From: Escherichia phage SM_S22 | Strand: one strand, 5' to 3' | DNA length: 44,820 bases | Sequence record: PP627283.1 | Shown here: positions 11,388 through 44,820 of the stretch, in pieces | How positions within the stretch are numbered: position 1 is the first letter of the stretch | Layout: each line of letters starts with the position of its first letter | The notes under the pieces: model-generated | The model's input: the letters and a program-made list of their open reading frames with translations, nothing else | Told to the model about the DNA's origin: nothing | Databases searched by the model: none | Program-made: the position numbers and the translations under genes

Positions 11388-11708
11388 TGAAGCGGGACAG
11401 GCGGGACGTCCCGTTTTGTCCCACCTCTGTAAAACCGCATATCTAATCACTTTTATTGCATAAACTCAAAGCGGGACAGGCGGGACGTCCCGCTTTGTCA
11501 CACCCTGTAAATGTGCATACCTATGCAGATTTCGTGCATAAAACAAACGGGACAAAAAGCGGGACAAACACGAGGCGGGACAAAGCGGGACAGCACCCCG
11601 TCCCCGCCAGTGCTGCCGCGGTTTTCAGCCGATCGGGACAGCGGGACAGCACCCCAGTCTTTCAGACTAGACGGGGGTCAGCGGCCCCCCTCGTCTGAGA
11701 CTGAATAA
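11388..11708 (+). repeat. CGGGACA-repeat element, copy 1
   Basis: Two ~75-bp units each holding palindrome GCGGGACGTCCCGC, then a 112-bp unit (11548-11659) with six CGGGACA copies and a 49-bp hairpin tail (11660-11708) that are identical to 39478-39749. Confidence 0.85.
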
Positions 11709-21932: not shown

Positions 21933-23549
21933 ATGGCAGCGGGTACGCTATCCGTAACGAACAATAGCAAGGCGGTAGTAGGGGTCGGCACAACGTTTAC
22001 CGCGTTTAAAGCTGGCGACTTCCTAACGCTGGTGGTAGGGCAAGTCCCCTACACCGTGGCAATCGCATCAATCGAAAGTAACACGGCGCTTACGCTGGTG
22101 TTGCCGTTCGACGGCCCAACGGCAACCGGCCTCGCGTGGGATGGCGTTAAGCGCGATACCATGTCGCTGGCAACGATGGGCGTTACCGTACAGGCGCAAA
22201 AAGCATTGCGCTTGATGATCGCAGATGAAAACAACTGGCGTGCAATCTTCGGCGACGCTGAAGAAATCACAGTGACGTTACCTAACGGGCAGGTTATGCA
22301 GGGCATGTCATGGGGCTATCTGTCGCAGCTAATGAAGCAGATCGACCCTGTGGAGATGCGCAACCTGCAACAACAAGCCGCCGCATCGGAAGCAGCCGCG
22401 CAAGGATTTCGCAATGAGGCCGAAGGCTTCAAGACCGAGACGGCGGGTATTCGCGACGCCACCAATGCCATCAAGACGCAGACCAACCAGATTAAGGCTG
22501 ATACGCAGGCCATCAAGGACCAGACGAACCAGATCAAGACGGATACGCAGGCCATCAAGGACCAGACGAACCAGATCAAGACTGATACTGGCGTTATTCG
22601 AGATCAGGCCAATACCGCGAAGACGGACGCGCAAGCCGCCCGCGATGCCGCGCAGGGGTATCGGGATGAAGCCGAAGACTTCAAAAACGCGATCGACCCT
22701 ACGCAATTCATGAAGAAGTCGCAGAACCTGGCAGACGTCGCCGATAAATCGGCGGCACGCGCTAATCTTGGTTTGGGGTCGGCAGCTACGGAGAACACCG
22801 TTCCGATCGAGAAAGGAGGAACCGCCGCGACGACTGTAGCCGCTGCGCGCACTAATTTCGGGTTGGGCGATAACAATAACGTAAAACTTGGCACGTTGCG
22901 CCTAAACGGGGGTGAATCGCTAGTCTTCAATGATGTCGAAAGAAACGGCTTAGCACTATCCAACGTGTCGTACGGCATTGACAGTTGGGTAGGCTTCACC
23001 ATGCATAAATGGTACGCCGACTGGACACGCGCAGGAATTGTGCGTGCGGGTGACACCCACGTGTCAGACTACCGCATCCACGTGTGGAGAGATGGTATTA
23101 CTGAAGCGCTGTTCCGCTTCCTGCCGGACGGCAGGCTTATTCAGGGTAACAGCAACAACCTTTCCGTAAATGAGTTTCAGAAAGCAGCGCTGTCGGACCG
23201 CGACCTTAAAAAAGAAATCCAATACACTGACGGCGAGGAAAGCTACAACCGCGTTCGTCAATGGCTTCCGGCAATGTTCAAGTATAAGGAGTCTGACGTA
23301 CAGCGATACGGCCTTATCGCGCAGGACCTGGCAAGGATTGACCCGGAATACGTGCATTTGCTGCCGGGTTATGCCATTTATGAGGATATCAAGGGGGTTG
23401 ACGAGGAAGGGAACGAGGTTGTAGTCGACCGCAAGGAGATCGGGTATACCGACGATGTGCTGTGTCTGGACAGTAACGTGCTGTTGATGGACCTGTGTGC
23501 CGCCTTCGTCCACCTGTTGCATAAAGTTGAGAAGCTAGAAGGTAAATAA
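21933..23549 (+). CDS. tail fibre with C-terminal self-cleaving intramolecular chaperone domain
   Basis: 538 aa; tandem repeats IKxQTNQIKxDTQA; C-terminal SDRDLKKEI...YGLIAQDLARIDPEYV resembles Peptidase_S74 chaperone domains of T5 L-shaped fibre and endosialidases. Confidence 0.7.
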   Translation: MAAGTLSVTNNSKAVVGVGTTFTAFKAGDFLTLVVGQVPYTVAIASIESNTALTLVLPFDGPTATGLAWDGVKRDTMSLATMGVTVQAQKALRLMIADENNWRAIFGDAEEITVTLPNGQVMQGMSWGYLSQLMKQIDPVEMRNLQQQAAASEAAAQGFRNEAEGFKTETAGIRDATNAIKTQTNQIKADTQAIKDQTNQIKTDTQAIKDQTNQIKTDTGVIRDQANTAKTDAQAARDAAQGYRDEAEDFKNAIDPTQFMKKSQNLADVADKSAARANLGLGSAATENTVPIEKGGTAATTVAAARTNFGLGDNNNVKLGTLRLNGGESLVFNDVERNGLALSNVSYGIDSWVGFTMHKWYADWTRAGIVRAGDTHVSDYRIHVWRDGITEALFRFLPDGRLIQGNSNNLSVNEFQKAALSDRDLKKEIQYTDGEESYNRVRQWLPAMFKYKESDVQRYGLIAQDLARIDPEYVHLLPGYAIYEDIKGVDEEGNEVVVDRKEIGYTDDVLCLDSNVLLMDLCAAFVHLLHKVEKLEGK

Positions 23550-24718: not shown

Positions 24719-24779
24719 GATGTTTTCCTTTTTAGTGGGAGGCGTATTGCCCCGACGCGTTAACTATAGTGCAACCAAC

Positions 24780-25250
24780 CTATTGGTTGCAAGTGAATTT
24801 TGCAACGTTTATCGCGTAAATTTTCGGGACCAAATCACCACACGCCCGACGAATTGCCGCGATGTTCTTCTCGCAATCTTCAATGATGACCAGTTCCGAC
24901 ACGTCCGCATAGCAGACCATTTTGAACACGGCGCACGCCTTAAACTCAGGCGGCGGGGTGTCGTCCTGCATGTGGCGCATAAACAACCGGCCTACCGGGA
25001 AGACCTCCAATTGCCTGGCGGTGGTGTCCCAGCATTCTCGCTGCCGGTTGGTCAGATACGCGATCTCGAAGCCTTGCTCTTTATACATGCTCAACAGCGG
25101 CAGCATATCCATGTTAAGGTCTTCGCGTACGTGCGCTTTGTGCCACTTCGCCCAAAATGTTGATTTGGTTTTTATCCCCGGCACCAGGTCGGCACGCGCA
25201 TCACTTGACCCGTTAATAACGCCATCCAAATCGCAAATCAGTAATTTCAT
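24780..25250 (-). CDS. HAD-superfamily phosphatase (nucleotidase / PNK-phosphatase-like)
   Basis: 156 aa; HAD motif I LICDLDGVI at N-terminus. Confidence 0.5.
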   Translation of the reverse strand: MKLLICDLDGVINGSSDARADLVPGIKTKSTFWAKWHKAHVREDLNMDMLPLLSMYKEQGFEIAYLTNRQRECWDTTARQLEVFPVGRLFMRHMQDDTPPPEFKACAVFKMVCYADVSELVIIEDCEKNIAAIRRACGDLVPKIYAINVAKFTCNQ

Positions 25251-32848: not shown

Positions 32849-33628
32849 TTAACGGCGGCGACGTTTGCGCGGTGCTTCGTCTTCGTCGTCTTCGTCCTCA
32901 TCTTCGTCATCGCGGGACTTGCGACGTTTGCGAGGTTTTTCATCTTCCTCATCGTCGTCGTCATCGCGGCGCTTGGATTTCTTGGACTTGCGCGGCTTGT
33001 CATCCTCGTCATCATCACGACGTTTTGACTTCTTAGCCTTACGCGGGCTTTCGTCTTCGTCGTCGTTGTCCAGGTCTTCGTCGGAACAAGAAGACCCGCC
33101 ACCTCCGAAGGCTTCGCCGTCTTCACGGAAGCGTAAACCCAGCAAGCCAGCACCGAGTCCCTTGCCGTTGGTGTTGTTCCACGCCCAAATATCCAGTGAC
33201 ACGTTGCAATAACAACCGGAATAGATTTCCTGGCCTTCGATCTCGTCGCCGTCGATAGTCAGACCCTGCTCGGTCTGCTTCTCGCCCAGTGACGTTTGAA
33301 TGTTTGGCTGCTTGAACGATTTGGCGTTGATGTACAACATGCCTTCGAATTCTTCGGTTACTTCGTCGCGCTCGTCACCGTCGCGAACTGCGCATTCCTT
33401 AGAATCCTGGGCGTAGTGGCGGTCCATCCACTTATCGGCATTCTTCTCGGATTTCAGCTTATCGGTGAGCACTGCGCGCGCTGCCGCTTCCACTTTGTCC
33501 ACCTGCGGATCTTCTTTATCCAGAAGAATCACGGCACGGTATGCCGGTTTTTGTCCATCCTGTTTAGGGGTATCACGTTCCCAAATTTTCAGGAAACATA
33601 CGCGCACATTTTTCAGGTTGACTTTAGC
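32849..33628 (-). CDS. ssDNA-binding protein (DUF2815-like) with charged repetitive C-terminal tail
   Basis: About 259 aa from MAKVNLKNVRV (RBS GAGGAA); C-terminus has three tandem ~17-aa D/E-block plus K/R-block repeats. Confidence 0.45.
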   Translation of the reverse strand, partial: AKVNLKNVRVCFLKIWERDTPKQDGQKPAYRAVILLDKEDPQVDKVEAAARAVLTDKLKSEKNADKWMDRHYAQDSKECAVRDGDERDEVTEEFEGMLYINAKSFKQPNIQTSLGEKQTEQGLTIDGDEIEGQEIYSGCYCNVSLDIWAWNNTNGKGLGAGLLGLRFREDGEAFGGGGSSCSDEDLDNDDEDESPRKAKKSKRRDDDEDDKPRKSKKSKRRDDDDDEEDEKPRKRRKSRDDEDEDEDDEDEAPRKRRRR

Positions 33629-35865: not shown

Positions 35866-36309
35866 TTAATCTTCCAGTTCGAAATAGGTTTCGACGATTT
35901 CTTTTAAATCTTTGTGGAAGTCTTCGACGTCGTCATCTTCCAGCTTGGCGATTGATTTGATCTCGAACGCTTCCAGCAGGTCGTCGAATTCGTCGTTGGC
36001 GTCGTCGTCATCACCACCGGCGATAATCGCGGCATACTGTTTGATTTCGTCGCGCATCTCTGCCAGCGGATCGGCATCTTTCTTACCTTTGCCTTTCGCC
36101 GTGGCTTTTTTGCCTTTCGCCGGTGCTTTTTTGGTTTTCGCCGGTGCTTCGTCTTCAGCGTCGTCATCTTCTACGACTTCTTTTTTCGCCTTAGATGGCT
36201 TTTTATCTTCCTGCTTACCAACGGCAGCGCCAACGGTTTCATAATGCTTAGCGATGGTTTCCAGTGCTACTACGCCGCGAGTAATCAGGTTTACGATTTG
36301 TTCAAACAT
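35866..36309 (-). CDS. highly charged early protein (Lys-rich block between acidic blocks)
   Basis: 147 aa; RBS GGAGAT; first gene of minus-strand early operon. Confidence 0.5.
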   Translation of the reverse strand: MFEQIVNLITRGVVALETIAKHYETVGAAVGKQEDKKPSKAKKEVVEDDDAEDEAPAKTKKAPAKGKKATAKGKGKKDADPLAEMRDEIKQYAAIIAGGDDDDANDEFDDLLEAFEIKSIAKLEDDDVEDFHKDLKEIVETYFELED

Positions 36310-39477: not shown

Positions 39478-39749
39478 CGGGACAAAAAGCGGGACAAACA
39501 CGAGGCGGGACAAAGCGGGACAGCACCCCGTCCCCGCCAGTGCTGCCGCGGTTTTCAGCCGATCGGGACAGCGGGACAGCACCCCAGTCGGGACAAAAAG
39601 CGGGACAAACACGAGGCGGGACAAAGCGGGACAGCACCCCGTCCCCGCCAGTGCTGCCGCGGTTTTCAGCCGATCGGGACAGCGGGACAGCACCCCAGTC
39701 TTTCAGACTAGACGGGGGTCAGCGGCCCCCCTCGTCTGAGACTGAATAA
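39478..39749 (+). repeat. CGGGACA-repeat element, copy 2 (tandemly duplicated 111-bp unit plus hairpin tail)
   Basis: Units 39478-39589 and 39589-39700, each with six CGGGACA copies and inverted GTCCC; tail 39701-39749 identical to 11660-11708. Confidence 0.85.
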
Positions 39750-42001: not shown

Positions 42002-42292
42002 ATGGATAAGCTAAACGAGTGGTTATTCGCCCTTGCGTGTCTTGCTGGTGGCTTCGTAGGCGCACGCATTCATGGCGAGGCAACGAAAGGGCCGTTGAAC
42101 TTCGTTTTATATGTCGTAGTTGGCTTCCTGTGTGCCATATTTGGTGCGCCAGCTATCGCCGAGTGGGCGGGCTTATCGGGCGAGCGCACTGTCGCCGGTT
42201 TGGGCTTCGTAACTGCCATCTTCTGGATGCCAATAGCTGACCGGATCCGGGAGACAATTGCGACGCTACACCTTCCGGGGGGCGCAAAATGA
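42002..42292 (+). CDS. holin (putative)
   Basis: 96 aa with three predicted TM segments; precedes lysozyme. Confidence 0.5.
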   Translation: MDKLNEWLFALACLAGGFVGARIHGEATKGPLNFVLYVVVGFLCAIFGAPAIAEWAGLSGERTVAGLGFVTAIFWMPIADRIRETIATLHLPGGAK

Positions 42293-42534
42293 TTATCTCC
42301 GTCCTGTTGTTTGTTATCATTGGGGCTTCGTCCCTGTTTAACGTGTATGCGCCGTCCGTCAAGGATGGCATTTTAGGCCGGGTGTTATATCTGCTAACGG
42401 CGATGGTCTGCATTATCGGACTGTTGCAAACAGGAGACGTATCTGACACCACCTGGGCCGCGTTAATCTGGCTGTTTGCATTGCGCACGCTGCGTAATGC
42501 TGTTTTAAATGGGGTAAAACATGCGATTCAGTGA
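42289..42534 (+). CDS. membrane protein (second holin or antiholin candidate)
   Basis: 81 aa with hydrophobic segments; coupled to neighbours. Confidence 0.4.
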   Translation: MIISVLLFVIIGASSLFNVYAPSVKDGILGRVLYLLTAMVCIIGLLQTGDVSDTTWAALIWLFALRTLRNAVLNGVKHAIQ

Positions 42535-43012
42535 CAACGGTCTACGATTTACGGCAGCATGGGAGCAATTCAGCCCAGTGCCGTATTTTGCGACTAAGAA
42601 AGAGCAGGCACGCGGCCTGTACACCTGGGGTTATGGGCATACTGGCACGAACCCGCCGCGGAGCATTACCCGTGCGGAAGCACTGGAGCTACTCAAGCGA
42701 GATGTGGCATATGCCGAGAACTGGGTGAACAAGTACGCACACCCGAGCATTAATCAGGCGCAATTCGACGCGCTGGTGGACCTGGTTATCAATGCTGGCC
42801 CGGGTCCGATCATGCCGGACGACGTCGCCGGTGACTTCGACGATGCTGTCCGCCTGGGTGACTGGGCAAAGGTGCGGGCTATACTGCCACAATTCCGCAA
42901 GCAAGGCGGGGAAGTGCTGAAGGGGTTAGTCCGTCGAGCAATCGGCAGGCAGGCGCTATTCGATGGTAAGCAGTGGGACGTTGCCGAGAAAATCGGTCGT
43001 AACGCAGCATAA
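42521..43012 (+). CDS. endolysin, phage lysozyme (GH24-like)
   Basis: 163 aa; WEQF...GLYTWGYGHTG and later QAQFDALVDLVINAG match phage lysozyme pattern. Confidence 0.7.
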   Translation: MRFSDNGLRFTAAWEQFSPVPYFATKKEQARGLYTWGYGHTGTNPPRSITRAEALELLKRDVAYAENWVNKYAHPSINQAQFDALVDLVINAGPGPIMPDDVAGDFDDAVRLGDWAKVRAILPQFRKQGGEVLKGLVRRAIGRQALFDGKQWDVAEKIGRNAA

Positions 43013-43021
43013 GGGGATGAT

Positions 43022-43429
43022 ATGTTAAAAAGTATTCTTGATCATAATGCGGACGCGCTCGACGCGTTGGCTAAAACGGACGACGCGGAAGCGCGTCGTA
43101 TCATTGCGGACACCATCAGCCATGCTGGGGTGTTTGGCGCAAGCCTTCCGGGTCCGAAACCAGAGGTAAAAGTGACAAGCGCCACGGTAACTGTAGCTCC
43201 CGAGGCGGTTACAATCGGCACCCCGGCGAAGGCTACTGCGGCGGTACAACCGGCAGGGGCGACCAATAAATCCGGCGTGTGGATTAGCGGGTCGCCGTCA
43301 ATCGCAACCGTGGATGCCTCCGGCAATATCGAAGGTAAAGCCGCCGGATCTGTCGATATTATTTGGGTGGCTAAGGATGGAAGCGGGGTATCGGGCCGCA
43401 AAACGGTAACTGTGGCAAACGTAGAGTAA
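43022..43429 (+). CDS. Ig-like (Big_2-type) domain protein
   Basis: 135 aa; C-terminal beta-rich segment typical of Ig-like domains. Confidence 0.45.
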   Translation: MLKSILDHNADALDALAKTDDAEARRIIADTISHAGVFGASLPGPKPEVKVTSATVTVAPEAVTIGTPAKATAAVQPAGATNKSGVWISGSPSIATVDASGNIEGKAAGSVDIIWVAKDGSGVSGRKTVTVANVE

Positions 43430-43444
43430 TGAGCAAGCCCGCCG

Positions 43445-43472
43445 TATTGGCGGGCTTTTTATTGTTTGACCT
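43445..43472 (+). terminator. intrinsic terminator
   Basis: AGCCCGCC-GTATT-GGCGGGCT followed by T-run. Confidence 0.55.
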
Positions 43473-43547
43473 GCAACCAATTAATAGCCCATACTGCGGT
43501 CGCCGTGGTATATTGACCGCGGACAATCTGAATCAGGAAGATATACA

Positions 43548-44690
43548 ATGCACCCGCAAACTAAAATCACCGACGAGCAATTGATCGCCGAGTTGCAATC
43601 CGGCACTACCGCGAAAGAGATTGCGAAGAAGTACGGCCTTTCCCTACGAAACGTCTACATGCGCAAAGCCCGCCTGTCGAAGAAAGGTATTGGTCACGGT
43701 AATGATGCCGTAATCCGTAAGCGCGTTGCCGATGGCTTCGGCGTGAAGCGTGTCTCCGCCCTGGTGCGTGGCAATGGCGAAGAGGTCATGTCGTGGGTTA
43801 TCACAGAGCAGGACAAGGAGCGCCAGCTTGAAGCAATGCGAGCCGTTGTCGAGGGTATGAACAGCGAAATCACACCGGCAGCACCAGTAAGCGCCCCGCC
43901 TGTCCCGGTCCAGGCACTTGACCTACTCAACCTGTACACCGTGTCCGACTTCCACCTGGGCATGTTGGCATGGGGTGAGGAGACTGGCGAGGACTGGGAT
44001 ATGGCAATCGCTGAAGACCTGTTTTACCGCTGGTTTGTCGAAGCCTTCGCCCGCGCACCAGACGCAGGAACTGCCGTAATCAATATCCTCGGTGATATGG
44101 CGCATTTTGATAGCCTCGATGCCGTCACCCCAGCCAGTGGTCACATCCTGGACGCAGATACCCGATACCAGAAACTGGTCCGCTACATGATTCGCATGGT
44201 GCGTAACGTGGTAGACCTGGCGCTGCAAAAACACCACAAAGTCAAACTTCTAATCGTCCAGGGGAATCATGACGAGTCGGGTATGATTTGGCTTGCGGAG
44301 ATGTTCAATACCCTGTATGAGAGCGAGCCGCGCGTCGATGTGGACACGTCCCCGGACGTATACAAGATGGTGCAGCACGGCAAGACCACGCTGTTTTTCC
44401 ACCACGGGCACAAAGCACGCTTTGACGCAATCGAGACGGTTATGATTGCTAAGTTCAGGAAAGCATTTGGCGAAAGCGAGTACAGCTACGCGCATGTCGG
44501 TCACTTGCACCACCAGAAGATTGTAGAATCCCGCAACATGATAGTTGAACAGCACCGGACACTCGCAGCGAAAGACGCCTACGCCAGTCGTGGCGGTTGG
44601 ATGTCCGGTCGCAGCGCCAACGTCATTACCTACAGCGCCAACTACGGCGAAGTAGCGCGCTTAACCATTAGCCCGGAAATGTTGAAGTAA
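43548..44690 (+). CDS. HTH domain fused to calcineurin-like metallophosphoesterase
   Basis: 380 aa; N-terminal HTH-like TAKEIAKKYGLSLRNVY; phosphoesterase motifs DFH, GDMAHFD, GNHDE, HHGH, GHLHH in canonical order. Confidence 0.55.
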   Translation: MHPQTKITDEQLIAELQSGTTAKEIAKKYGLSLRNVYMRKARLSKKGIGHGNDAVIRKRVADGFGVKRVSALVRGNGEEVMSWVITEQDKERQLEAMRAVVEGMNSEITPAAPVSAPPVPVQALDLLNLYTVSDFHLGMLAWGEETGEDWDMAIAEDLFYRWFVEAFARAPDAGTAVINILGDMAHFDSLDAVTPASGHILDADTRYQKLVRYMIRMVRNVVDLALQKHHKVKLLIVQGNHDESGMIWLAEMFNTLYESEPRVDVDTSPDVYKMVQHGKTTLFFHHGHKARFDAIETVMIAKFRKAFGESEYSYAHVGHLHHQKIVESRNMIVEQHRTLAAKDAYASRGGWMSGRSANVITYSANYGEVARLTISPEMLK

Positions 44691-44710: not shown

Positions 44711-44736
44711 AGCCCGCCGATTTGGTGGGCTTTTTT
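44711..44736 (+). terminator. intrinsic terminator
   Basis: AGCCCGCC-GATTT-GGTGGGCT followed by TTTTTT. Confidence 0.55.
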
Positions 44737-44741
44737 GTGCC

Positions 44742-44750
44742 TGTTATAAT
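44742..44750 (+). promoter_or_regulatory. extended -10 promoter element (TGtTATAAT) reading toward window end
   Basis: Would drive the terminase small subunit at position 1 if the molecule is circular or permuted. Confidence 0.4.
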
Positions 44751-44820
44751 CCACCTTAGATGGCAGGGCCGTCTCCTATGTTGCCGATGGTCGGCGCATA
44801 TGAACAAAAGGGCTTATATC

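Follow-up and report, generated by a model that had tools for sequence, protein, structure and literature searches.

Between the lysis genes and the terminase of Escherichia phage SM_S22 lies a gene whose product joins an HTH to a metallophosphoesterase (MPE), and the locus raises the question of what such a fusion does for the phage. Its homologs, the T1 gp16 family, are among the most persistent function-unassigned genes of small virulent siphoviruses, many of which are phage-therapy candidates. We analyzed a window of 44,820 nucleotides (sequence record PP627283.1), which holds the entire, circularly permuted genome of a Dhillonvirus. The features of the locus are collected in Table 1.

Table 1. 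Coordinates of the gene, its protein domains and motifs, and the flanking signals
Feature	Position in window	Strand	Evidence
Intrinsic terminator AAGCCCGCCGTATTGGCGGGCTT + T run, ends lysis/Ig-like ORF unit	43435..43457	+	10-pair stem, 7 G-C
Predicted sigma-70-like promoter TTGACC-18-CATACT for the gene	43466..43495	+	9/12 consensus matches only
TGCAACCAAT copy abutting the -35 hexamer of the gene's promoter	43472..43481	+	Motif count
Second, weaker sigma-70-like promoter match	43520-43549	+	Consensus match
Ribosome-binding site AGGAAG, 7 nt 5' of ATG	43535..43540	+	Direct sequence reading
CDS, HTH-metallophosphoesterase (PHROG 704, T1 gp16 family)	43548..44690	+	ORF, profile and homolog matches
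Three-helix HTH, aa 8-48, probable LuxR/GerE/sigma-70 region 4 type	43569..43691	+	Structure model, profile matches
Beta-hairpin + helix module, aa 60-107	43725..43868	+	Conserved; W83 invariant, G77 near-invariant
MPE domain, aa 126-380	43923..44687	+	Alignment, structure model, motif positions
Motif I, D134-F-H136	43947-43955	+	
Motif II, G182-D183-M-A-H186	44091-44105	+	
Family-specific VTPxSGHxLDxDxR loop	44124-44165	+	
Motif III, G239-N-H-D242	44262-44273	+	
Motif IV, H285-H286-G-H288	44400-44411	+	
Motif V, G318-H319-L-H321	44499-44513	+	
Intrinsic terminator AGCCCGCCGATTTGGTGGGCT + T run, directly 3' of stop codon	44711..44731	+	Terminator scan
Extended -10 element TGTTATAAT before terS, no good -35	44742..44750	+	Sequence reading

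A catalogued core gene of the T1 gp16 family

The ATG-initiated ORF of 380 amino acids lies at the coordinates first reported. Its product matched PHROG 704 ("DNA repair exonuclease") with an E value of 1.2e-160, residues 5 to 380 aligning to profile positions 2 to 390 of 390, and also matched phrog_284 ("exonuclease") with an E value of 1e-13. It shares 44 to 46% identity with the T1 and Rtp proteins across 98 to 99% of its length, and T1 gp16 and Rtp gp61 have the same HTH-hairpin-MPE architecture. Judged by its sequence, the product is a member of the coliphage T1 gp16/Rtp gp61 (Rtp61) family, which is already catalogued and not new. More than 2,000 phage records match this family, with carriers in Drexlerviridae, Dhillonvirus, Jerseyvirus, Kagunavirus, and Webervirus, and a genome scan with an eight-sequence alignment identified prophage members in bacterial chromosomes. 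Among the Drexlerviridae the gene is persistent, with a homolog in 508 of 522 genomes (PMC13164509).

Our literature search turned up no work on the function of T1 gp16, of Rtp61, or of their Dhillonvirus counterpart, and the gene is not discussed in the BASEL papers, the SECphi18 escaper study, a pattern-recognition-receptor preprint, a Druantia/Zorya preprint, or a Dhillonvirus genome paper. The name given to PHROG 704 is an annotation label, and the function that it states is not experimentally based. Base composition gave no signal of horizontal acquisition as a moron: the GC content of the gene (0.54 to 0.56) resembles that of the region around it, from 38 to 44.8 kb (0.50 to 0.60). We concluded that the gene is an ordinary, uncharacterized core phage gene.

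Conservation of the phosphoesterase motifs

The original prediction described a fusion of an HTH with a calcineurin-like MPE that carries all canonical MPE motifs in order. The ORF, the N-terminal HTH, and the motif order were all borne out: motifs I to V follow one another in the C-terminal domain, and their key residues were invariant in an alignment of 40 diverse homologs that share 33 to 48% identity with the window protein. Invariant positions were D134, H136, G182, D183, N240, H241, H286, G318, and H321, with H186, D188, D202, R206, H285, H288, and H319 near-invariant. The invariance of the catalytic motifs across such diverse homologs suggests that purifying selection maintains an active enzyme. 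The predicted structure has the four-layer alpha/beta sandwich fold of MPEs, and its structural neighbors are double-strand-break-repair nucleases and polymerase proofreading subunits.

Profile libraries recovered this domain poorly. Pfam Metallophos and Metallophos_2 scored below their gathering thresholds (19.6 bits versus a cut-off of 21.5, and 23.7 versus 27), and 11 of the 40 homologs matched Metallophos at an E value of <0.01; the T1 gp16 family is a divergent MPE clade that is poorly covered by Pfam. NCBIfam gave no usable match for the window protein, TIGR04123 being subthreshold with an E value of 0.087. The sole "significant" PDB matches of the single protein, to designed armadillo-repeat proteins, were discarded as an artifact of many weak repeats aligning against residues 67 to 100.

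Lambda NinI (lambda protein phosphatase) belongs to the same superfamily, and an analogous protein Ser/Thr/Tyr phosphatase could be imagined here. On the lambda map NinI closes the nin region and has Q nearby. This position is comparable to that of the homologs in two lambdoid prophages (L013 and L020), where the gene comes after RusA/NinB-type genes and beside a Q-like gene. The window protein does not match the PPP protein phosphatase signatures GDxHG, GDxVDRG, and GNHE, and we regard a role as a protein phosphatase as scarcely probable.

The N-terminal HTH and hairpin module

The structure model places three helices within residues 9 to 45, and a profile of the family's N terminus matched RhlR, GerE, VraR, and NarL with E values of 3e-4 to 3e-3. 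Pfam Sigma70_r4_2 was reached by 10 of the 40 homologs (best E value, 1.5e-9) and Pfam GerE by 4 of them (best E value, 2.4e-8); the window protein alone gave weak Pfam HTH matches, with E values of about 0.01. The model, the family profile, and the homolog matches back the HTH-like segment that had been proposed and, together with the motifs and the fold, support the description of the product as a predicted DNA-binding phosphoesterase. For the hairpin module that follows the HTH, we found no specific structural match. The N-terminal module matched 1,596 phage records, and among the matches listed all were phosphoesterase, exonuclease, or hypothetical-protein features. In two distant relatives the phosphoesterase domain is kept with no detectable match to the HTH-bearing N-terminal region: the alignment starts no earlier than query residue 80 for the protein of Vibrio phage K137 and query residue 127 for that of Campylobacter phage F370 (317 amino acids by annotated coordinates).

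Since the HTH resembles the sigma-70 region 4/LuxR class, the product might be a transcription factor-enzyme that governs the switch from early to late genes, in which the HTH would activate or repress junction promoters and the phosphoesterase would serve as a sensor or secondary activity. The repeated occurrence of the gene at the early/late junction is in keeping with this, as are the label "transcriptional regulator" that some depositors give to homologs and the downstream terS promoter, with its extended -10 and lack of a good -35. However, the catalytic residues are invariant and enzyme activity is hence a conserved property, and the K137 and F370 relatives keep the phosphoesterase domain even where the N-terminal match is lost. 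Other regulators are also present, namely, a Q-like antiterminator immediately upstream in the Dyella prophage and a separate regulator, gp23, in Rtp and T1.

A further argument against a transcription factor came from TGCAACCAAT, the window's one over-represented operator-like motif, which does not co-occur with the protein family. This was the most over-represented word in the window, with 18 sites versus 3.0 expected. Dhillonvirus StarDew has kept it, with 19 sites, but it occurs once in Jerseyvirus SETP7 and at chance level in Rtp. The SETP7 and Rtp homologs have a predicted recognition helix similar to that of the window protein, and we therefore rejected this Dhillonvirus-specific word as the target of the HTH; it is probably a putative operator for some other phage regulator. 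Overall, we consider a transcription factor-enzyme quite unlikely.

Genome position and transcription signals

Upstream of the gene lie the holins (42002-42534), the endolysin (42521-43012), and an Ig-like ORF (43022-43429), and downstream terS begins at 44800 and runs on at window position 1. The joined terS ORF, of 190 amino acids, agrees with the terS annotated in phage welsh at 189 of 190 positions. These neighbors place the gene between the lysis cassette and the terminase of the circularly permuted genome, as had been proposed. Its placement at the "end of the late region" was loosely worded: the gene forms a unit of its own, with a terminator on either side. This unit comes after a rightward block that opens with a Gam-like gene and a helicase-primase. 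The terminator scan returned 11 terminator-like sites in the region versus 3.5 expected, and the stem of the terminator that follows the gene is similar to that of the one upstream. The extended -10 element before terS was missed by the promoter scan because its -35 is poor; this predicted element stands at the head of the operon for packaging and structural genes.

The position directly upstream of terS, in the window and in other Dhillonviruses, suggested an accessory nuclease of packaging or maturation. Like the HNH endonucleases of HK97-like phages, it would partner the terminase, cutting or cleaning concatemers as packaging begins, and its HTH site would lie near pac/cos. Similar placements recur: zero to three small genes separate the gene from terS/terL in four loci (L022, L028, L033, and L035) whose terminases belong to different PHROG families, and a crude context survey added five further cases (L024, L067, L075, L094, and L097). 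Set against these are the 508 of 522 Drexlerviridae genomes in which the gene sits beside the lysis cassette, far from the terminase (PMC13164509), an arrangement with which the Rtp map agrees. In the Jersey- and Kagunaviruses the gene lies in a reversed cassette within the tail genes, in LIMEzero and F370 it sits among replication and repair genes, and for many phages the junction that precedes terS is no more than the point where the early or middle region ends. We find a dedicated packaging nuclease doubtful. The related idea that the protein replaces TerS was rejected, since separate TerS candidates were present wherever we checked.

Gene neighborhoods in other phages and prophages

Across the family, the position of the gene is variable: it is found before or after the lysis genes, before terS, or in an opposite-strand cassette within the tail genes. 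In Rtp and T1 a helicase and a VRR-NUC gene precede the MPE gene at some distance, and a terminator separates it from the holin. The Luteimonas prophage has the order DnaB, methyltransferase, Ref-like, and RusA, with the MPE gene farther on, and the Dyella prophage has NinB, HNH, a Q-like antiterminator, MPE, and endolysin. In the podovirus LIMEzero, DNA polymerase, 5'-3' exonuclease, and endonuclease VII genes are followed by the MPE gene and, farther on, a polynucleotide kinase, and in Campylobacter phage F370 the order is Holliday-junction resolvase, DNA ligase, MPE. We counted these DNA-processing neighbors in unrelated lineages in favor of a nuclease, and the variable position of the gene against it.

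The same neighborhoods bear on two further explanations. The product could heal 3' ends, acting as a 2',3'-cyclic phosphodiesterase/3'-phosphatase alongside a polynucleotide kinase in the repair of RNA or DNA that defense nucleases of the host have cut, like the MPE domain of Clostridium thermocellum Pnkp. Polynucleotide kinase genes are frequent neighbors in Drexlerviridae and LIMEzero, and in F370 a DNA ligase adjoins the gene. In the Drexlerviridae, polynucleotide kinase and dNMP kinase genes often lie downstream of the MPE gene (PMC13164509), and MPE enzymes of the lambda-phosphatase/CthPnkp type are reported to have 3'-end-healing activity (PMC2190708). We give end healing a low probability, comparable to that of the transcription factor or slightly below it.

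The other explanation, degradation of nucleotide second messengers used by host defense, was one of three roles originally suggested, along with a phosphatase and a nuclease-type enzyme. A hydrolase of small signaling nucleotides (cyclic or linear oligonucleotides, or cAMP-type) would have no obvious use for fusion to a DNA-binding HTH, and the gene's context is one of DNA metabolism and not of early anti-defense clusters. No PADLOC family of defense or anti-defense genes matched at an E value of 1 or lower, and our literature search found no link to anti-defense. To our knowledge, the known anti-CBASS and anti-Pycsar enzymes have other folds (2H and MBL). This suggestion thus found no support and seems to us very improbable; of the three roles, it is the nuclease type that we favor.

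A proposed Rad50-independent DNA nuclease

On balance, it is probable that the product is an HTH-tethered, Rad50-independent, binuclear-metal DNA nuclease acting in phage DNA metabolism. We favor this role because of the GDxxH form of motif II, the matches to PDB entries for Mre11/SbcD and a Pseudomonas putida "Nuclease MPE" (none of them significant), and the recombination and repair neighbors seen elsewhere. When the family profile was compared with PDB sequences, these were the only MPE-type matches, and the best matches to Mre11/SbcD chains were nonsignificant, with E values of 0.59 to 2.9.

In the proposed mechanism, the LuxR/sigma-4-like HTH, which if of LuxR type would suggest a dimer, would hold the enzyme on duplex DNA, probably assisted by the beta-hairpin module, and the C-terminal Mre11/SbcD/DP1-like domain would hydrolyze phosphodiester bonds at DNA ends, hairpins, or single-stranded or branched regions. 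Two metal ions, likely Mn2+, would be bound by D134, H136, D183, N240, H286, H319, and H321, while catalysis would be aided by H241 and H186, and a Rad50/SbcC ATPase would not be needed. During infection, the enzyme would be made from the gene's own sigma-70-type promoter. One or both of two jobs would be expected: trimming or clearing replication and recombination intermediates ahead of packaging, and helping to degrade host DNA for nucleotide reuse.

Also in favor of a nuclease, host DNA is degraded by both T1 and TLS, through an enzyme that has not been identified according to the authors of that work (PMC11447400). A DNA nuclease in this family would be a concrete candidate for the enzyme that degrades the host chromosome in T1-like infections, and would bear on generalized transduction by therapeutic phages, on defense systems such as Metis that sense the breakdown of DNA, and on how an Mre11-type nuclease works without Rad50. 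The bacterial MPE of the Metis preprint is unrelated to this family. The presence of family members in prophages within large bacterial chromosomes argues against wholesale destruction of host DNA as a universal role. The fuller proposal, in which the HTH guides a Rad50-independent Mre11-like nuclease by sequence to the host chromosome or to a phage replication-to-packaging intermediate, and T1 gp16 and its Dhillonvirus ortholog are the enzymes of T1-type chromosome breakdown and nucleotide recycling, is unlikely on present indications.

Comparison with known systems

Motif II of Mre11 is GDxxH. Mre11/SbcD and the window protein both have an MPE nuclease core whose motif II carries this histidine, but where Mre11/SbcD and T4 gp47 have a capping domain, the window protein has the N-terminal HTH and hairpin module; a capping domain is probably absent, since nothing follows the MPE core in the protein. 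The near-identical genome of Dhillonvirus StarDew has no annotated Rad50/SbcC/gp46-type partner, and no Rad50/SbcC-type partner adjoins the homologs in Rtp, SETP7, LIMEzero, F370, or the Luteimonas and Dyella prophages. The apparent lack of both partner and capping domain counts against a nuclease, as do the nonsignificant sequence links to Mre11/SbcD. A second relative by fold is DP1, the small subunit of archaeal PolD and an Mre11-like 3'-5' proofreading exonuclease. It shares only 13% identity with the window protein, and the phage has no DP2 partner; a family A polymerase is annotated separately (StarDew), and the polymerase of Dhillonvirus SECphi18 reportedly carries a proofreading domain itself.

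A precedent for an MPE that acts without Rad50 is PdeM of P. putida, which is reported to be a ligase-associated, Rad50-independent single-stranded DNA endonuclease (PMC7826289). Its adjacency to a ligase recurs at the F370 homolog. PdeM differs in being about 216 amino acids long (PDB chains 6nvo/6nvp), with no HTH, and in belonging to a bacterial Lhr-Lig repair operon. The faint sequence links to it, through NCBIfam TIGR04123 (E value, 0.087) and through the match of 6nvo to the family profile (E value, 2.4), fall far below significance.

Two phage proteins of MPE type are precedents for attack on DNA and count in favor of a nuclease. Phosphodiesterase activity has been measured for Gp48 of mycobacteriophage A10ZJ24, an MPE that is reported to disrupt the integrity of host genomic DNA and to silence defense genes (PMC12287305). 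Like the window protein, it is described as a phage MPE with five motifs; it differs in that it is reported to be expressed early, in a Cluster A temperate-type phage, and no HTH fusion is described for it (PMC12287305). The pre-early predicted metallophosphatase A1 of T5 is reported to be both required and sufficient for the degradation of host DNA (bioRxiv 10.64898/2026.04.02.716235), and it has the same structural neighbors as the window protein. A1 is a 556-amino-acid protein of PHROG 1745 and not 704, made pre-early in a two-step injection system. Homology between the two was rejected, as hhalign gave a probability of 18% over 20 columns around motif III only; this narrow link also weighs against a nuclease. 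A1 and the window protein are at most analogs. Should the fuller proposal hold, small siphoviruses would gain a host-takeover nuclease analogous to T5 A1 and T4 EndoII and unrelated to them in sequence.

Conserved motifs and predicted fold

The original prediction described a metallophosphoesterase (MPE) preceded by an N-terminal helix-turn-helix (HTH)-like segment. All five MPE motifs occur in order (DFH 134-136, GDMAH 182-186, GNHD 239-242, HHGH 285-288, and GHLHH 318-322). When we aligned 40 diverse homologues, which share 33-48% identity with the window protein, nine residues proved invariant (D134, H136, G182, D183, N240, H241, H286, G318, and H321) and eight more were at least 90% conserved (H186, D188, D202, R206, D242, H285, H288, and H319). 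Loss of metal-binding residues had been named as a possible refutation; instead, six of the predicted metal ligands (D134, H136, D183, N240, H286, and H321) are invariant, and H319 is at least 90% conserved. The alignment also revealed a family-specific loop, VTPxSGHxLDxDxR, after motif II. Pfam detects the MPE domain only below gathering thresholds, and Metallophos matches at E < 0.01 were obtained for only 11 of the 40 homologues; the family is a divergent clade of the metallophosphoesterase superfamily.

An AlphaFold2 model built from the same alignment was confident (pLDDT 90, pTM 0.76). It places three helices at residues 9-45, where the HTH had been proposed, followed by a beta-hairpin (64-88), a helix (90-105), and an alpha/beta phosphoesterase sandwich (~126 to 380). 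In all, 1,596 phage records contain a match to the N-terminal module; among the matches listed, it falls within features annotated as phosphoesterase, exonuclease, or hypothetical protein, so the fusion is stable.

Locus and predicted transcription unit

The window covers the whole genome of an Escherichia Dhillonvirus (HK578-like siphovirus) in circularly permuted form; 1.4 kb around the MPE gene are 90-94% identical in DNA to many Dhillonvirus records, and the protein is 97-99% identical to counterparts in phages vB_EcoS_PNS1, Kenya-K19, and SECphi18. The predicted placement between lysis cassette and terminase was borne out, with endolysin and holins upstream and terS across the circular join. 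Joined across the window ends, the terS open reading frame encodes 190 amino acids, 189 of which agree with the terS annotated in phage welsh. Given two bracketing terminators and a promoter match of its own, the MPE gene looks monocistronic. In GC content the gene resembles the 38-44.8 kb region around it.

Features around the MPE gene and sites of the word TGCAACCAAT
Feature	Position	Strand	Details
MPE gene	43548..44690	+	CDS, 380 aa
Ribosome-binding site, MPE gene			AGGAAG, 7 nt upstream of start
Two holins	42002-42534		Upstream of MPE gene
Endolysin	42521-43012		Upstream of MPE gene
Ig-like ORF	43022-43429	+	135 aa, between endolysin and MPE gene
Strong intrinsic terminator (predicted)	43435-43457		Upstream flank of MPE gene
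Sigma-70-like promoter match	43466-43495		TTGACC-18-CATACT
Strong intrinsic terminator (predicted)	44711-44731		Downstream flank of MPE gene
terS	Starts 44800, runs on from window position 1		Downstream of MPE gene
TGCAACCAAT sites	5792, 5805, 21907, 24770/24782, 26444, 26461, 29391, 29403, 36515, 39328, 39382, 39417, 39809, 39900, 39931, 40660, 43472

The stems of the two terminators are nearly the same (AAGCCCGCCG...CGGCGGGCTT versus AGCCCGCCG...GGTGGGCT), and in Jersey- and Kagunaviruses the homologue occupies a different place, within the tail module, as a cassette in reverse orientation; the gene may thus be mobile as a complete transcription cassette. Directly after its terminator, at 44742-44750, an extended -10 element before terS (TGTTATAAT, with no recognisable -35) is a candidate late-operon start. 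The ORF preceding the MPE gene resembles a bacterial Ig-like domain in its C-terminal half, an odd protein for this slot; its relatives are variously labelled "bacterial Ig-like domain containing protein," "putative lysozyme," and "major tail protein."

Family size and genomic neighbourhoods

The protein belongs to a known, catalogued, and very large phage family, and the finding will not surprise a specialist. Its match to PHROG 704 ("DNA repair exonuclease") is full-length (E 1.2e-160). When representatives of clusters at 50% identity were searched exhaustively, 4,646 clusters matched at E <= 1e-3, 1,133 of them also at E <= 1e-30. With tblastn, homologues were found in 2,069 phage records, including Dhillonvirus; Kagunavirus and Jerseyvirus (~76% identity); Drexlerviridae (44-46%, including T1 gp16 and Rtp gp61); Klebsiella phages; and Rhodobacter and Roseobacter phages (35-38%). 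Vibrio phage homologues (32%) align only from query residue 80 and thus do not match the N-terminal region; those of T4-like Campylobacter phages (29%) cover the phosphoesterase domain only. Prophages in large bacterial contigs also carry homologues (e.g., Dyella, Luteimonas, Bordetella, Frateuria, Phenylobacterium, and Ralstonia). Our literature search turned up no experimental study of a T1 gp16/PHROG 704 family member.

Gene order around MPE homologues (L numbers denote homologue-bearing loci)
Genome	Gene order
Rtp / T1	Helicase, VRR-NUC, small ORFs, MPE, small ORF, strong terminator, holin
Luteimonas prophage (L013)	Replication initiator, DnaB, methyltransferase, Ref-like, RusA, unknown, MPE, ..., endolysin, ..., TerL
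Dyella prophage (L020)	NinB, HNH, Q-like antiterminator, MPE, small ORF, endolysin, ..., TerL
Bordetella, Paraburkholderia (two), Ralstonia (L022, L028, L033, L035)	MPE 0-3 small genes upstream of terS/terL; terminases of different PHROG families
Podovirus LIMEzero	DNA polymerase, 5'-3' exonuclease, endonuclease VII, MPE, ..., polynucleotide kinase, RNA polymerase
Campylobacter phage F370	Holliday-junction resolvase, DNA ligase, MPE
Jerseyvirus SETP7	Opposite-strand cassette of three genes within tail genes, terminator at end

Gene order was just as heterogeneous across 105 loci in a crude survey. The common site is the end of the DNA-metabolism (early or middle) block, at the junction with the lysis or packaging genes, where the adjacent genes encode nucleases, resolvases, a ligase, and kinases. 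In the Dyella halodurans prophage (L020 6596-9839), the homologue lies between a Q-like antiterminator and an endolysin, a slot that in lambdoid phages holds late-expressed cargo such as stx; the ~520-nt gap between the Q-like gene and the homologue may hold a late promoter and a terminator.

Repeated sequences in the window

The window's most enriched word, TGCAACCAAT, has 18 sites against 3.0 expected (10-mer, one mismatch allowed), a count reached by none of 100 shuffles. Sites are mostly intergenic or in promoters and often paired: one pair makes a perfect 22-bp palindrome (TGCAACCAACCTATTGGTTGCA, 24770-24791), another site (36515) occupies the spacer of a TTGACT-17-TAATAT promoter, and the copy at 43472 abuts the MPE gene's -35. 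StarDew, a near-identical Dhillonvirus, keeps the word at the same places. We rejected it as the target of the protein's HTH, because it is absent from the genomes of SETP7 (a single site) and Rtp (chance level), yet their homologues have similar predicted recognition helices (LRNVYMRKARL, RRNVQLRSARL, and IRNVELRRSKL across homologues). The word probably serves another Dhillonvirus regulator as operator.

Other repeats were also present. Noncoding regions upstream of the tape-measure gene (11390-11708) and downstream of the helicase-primase gene (39478-39749) share a 161-nt repeat, 100% identical between 11548-11708 and 39589-39749, with a third copy at 39478-39638 (76%). These repeats are dense with GCGGGACA/AGCGGGAC units, both direct and inverted, and resemble iterons or arrays of protein-binding sites. 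Three tandem 42-nt (14-aa) repeats (22467-22592) lie within a 538-aa ORF (21933-23549) corresponding in position to StarDew tail fibre gene gp26. Two early-region proteins, encoded on the minus strand, contain long acidic (Asp/Glu-rich) tracts specified by GTCTTCGTCGTC-type repeats (32858-33082 and 35920-36174), and three tandem 21-nt repeats occur at 36088-36150.

Predicted activity and comparison with known nucleases

Three roles had been proposed: protein phosphatase, nuclease-type enzyme, and degradation of signalling nucleotides. The nuclease is best supported. Motif II has the form GDxxH, a feature of Mre11, and the protein contains no PPP phosphatase signatures. The only PDB phosphoesterases matched by the family profile were Mre11/SbcD and the P. 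putida "Nuclease MPE," all nonsignificantly (E 0.59-2.9). Foldseek matched many ~400-aa phage phosphoesterases among viral models, several auto-labelled "DNA polymerase II small subunit." No Rad50/SbcC-like partner is annotated in the near-identical StarDew genome, and the Mre11 capping domain is apparently missing; the protein thus is nuclease-branch-like in predicted action but not an Mre11/SbcD orthologue.

In the most likely model, the HTH would tether a binuclear-metal DNA nuclease that acts without Rad50 on DNA ends, hairpins, or branched or single-stranded regions. We think it rather likely that the protein is a DNA nuclease of phage DNA metabolism; the rival readings are a terminase accessory nuclease, a junction transcription factor, an end-healing phosphoesterase, a signalling-nucleotide hydrolase, and a protein phosphatase. 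Such a nuclease could trim or clear replication and recombination intermediates ahead of packaging, a role favoured by the gene neighbours and by the family's presence in temperate phages. It could also break down the host chromosome for nucleotide reuse. T1 and TLS break down host DNA by an enzyme that has not been identified (PMC11447400), and in Drexlerviridae, family members often lie next to genes for dNMP kinase and polynucleotide kinase (PMC13164509). These observations favour the host-chromosome role, as do the precedents of T5 A1, whose homology to the family does not extend beyond motif III, and mycobacteriophage Gp48. The MPE gene is a reasonable candidate for the T1-type host-DNA nuclease.
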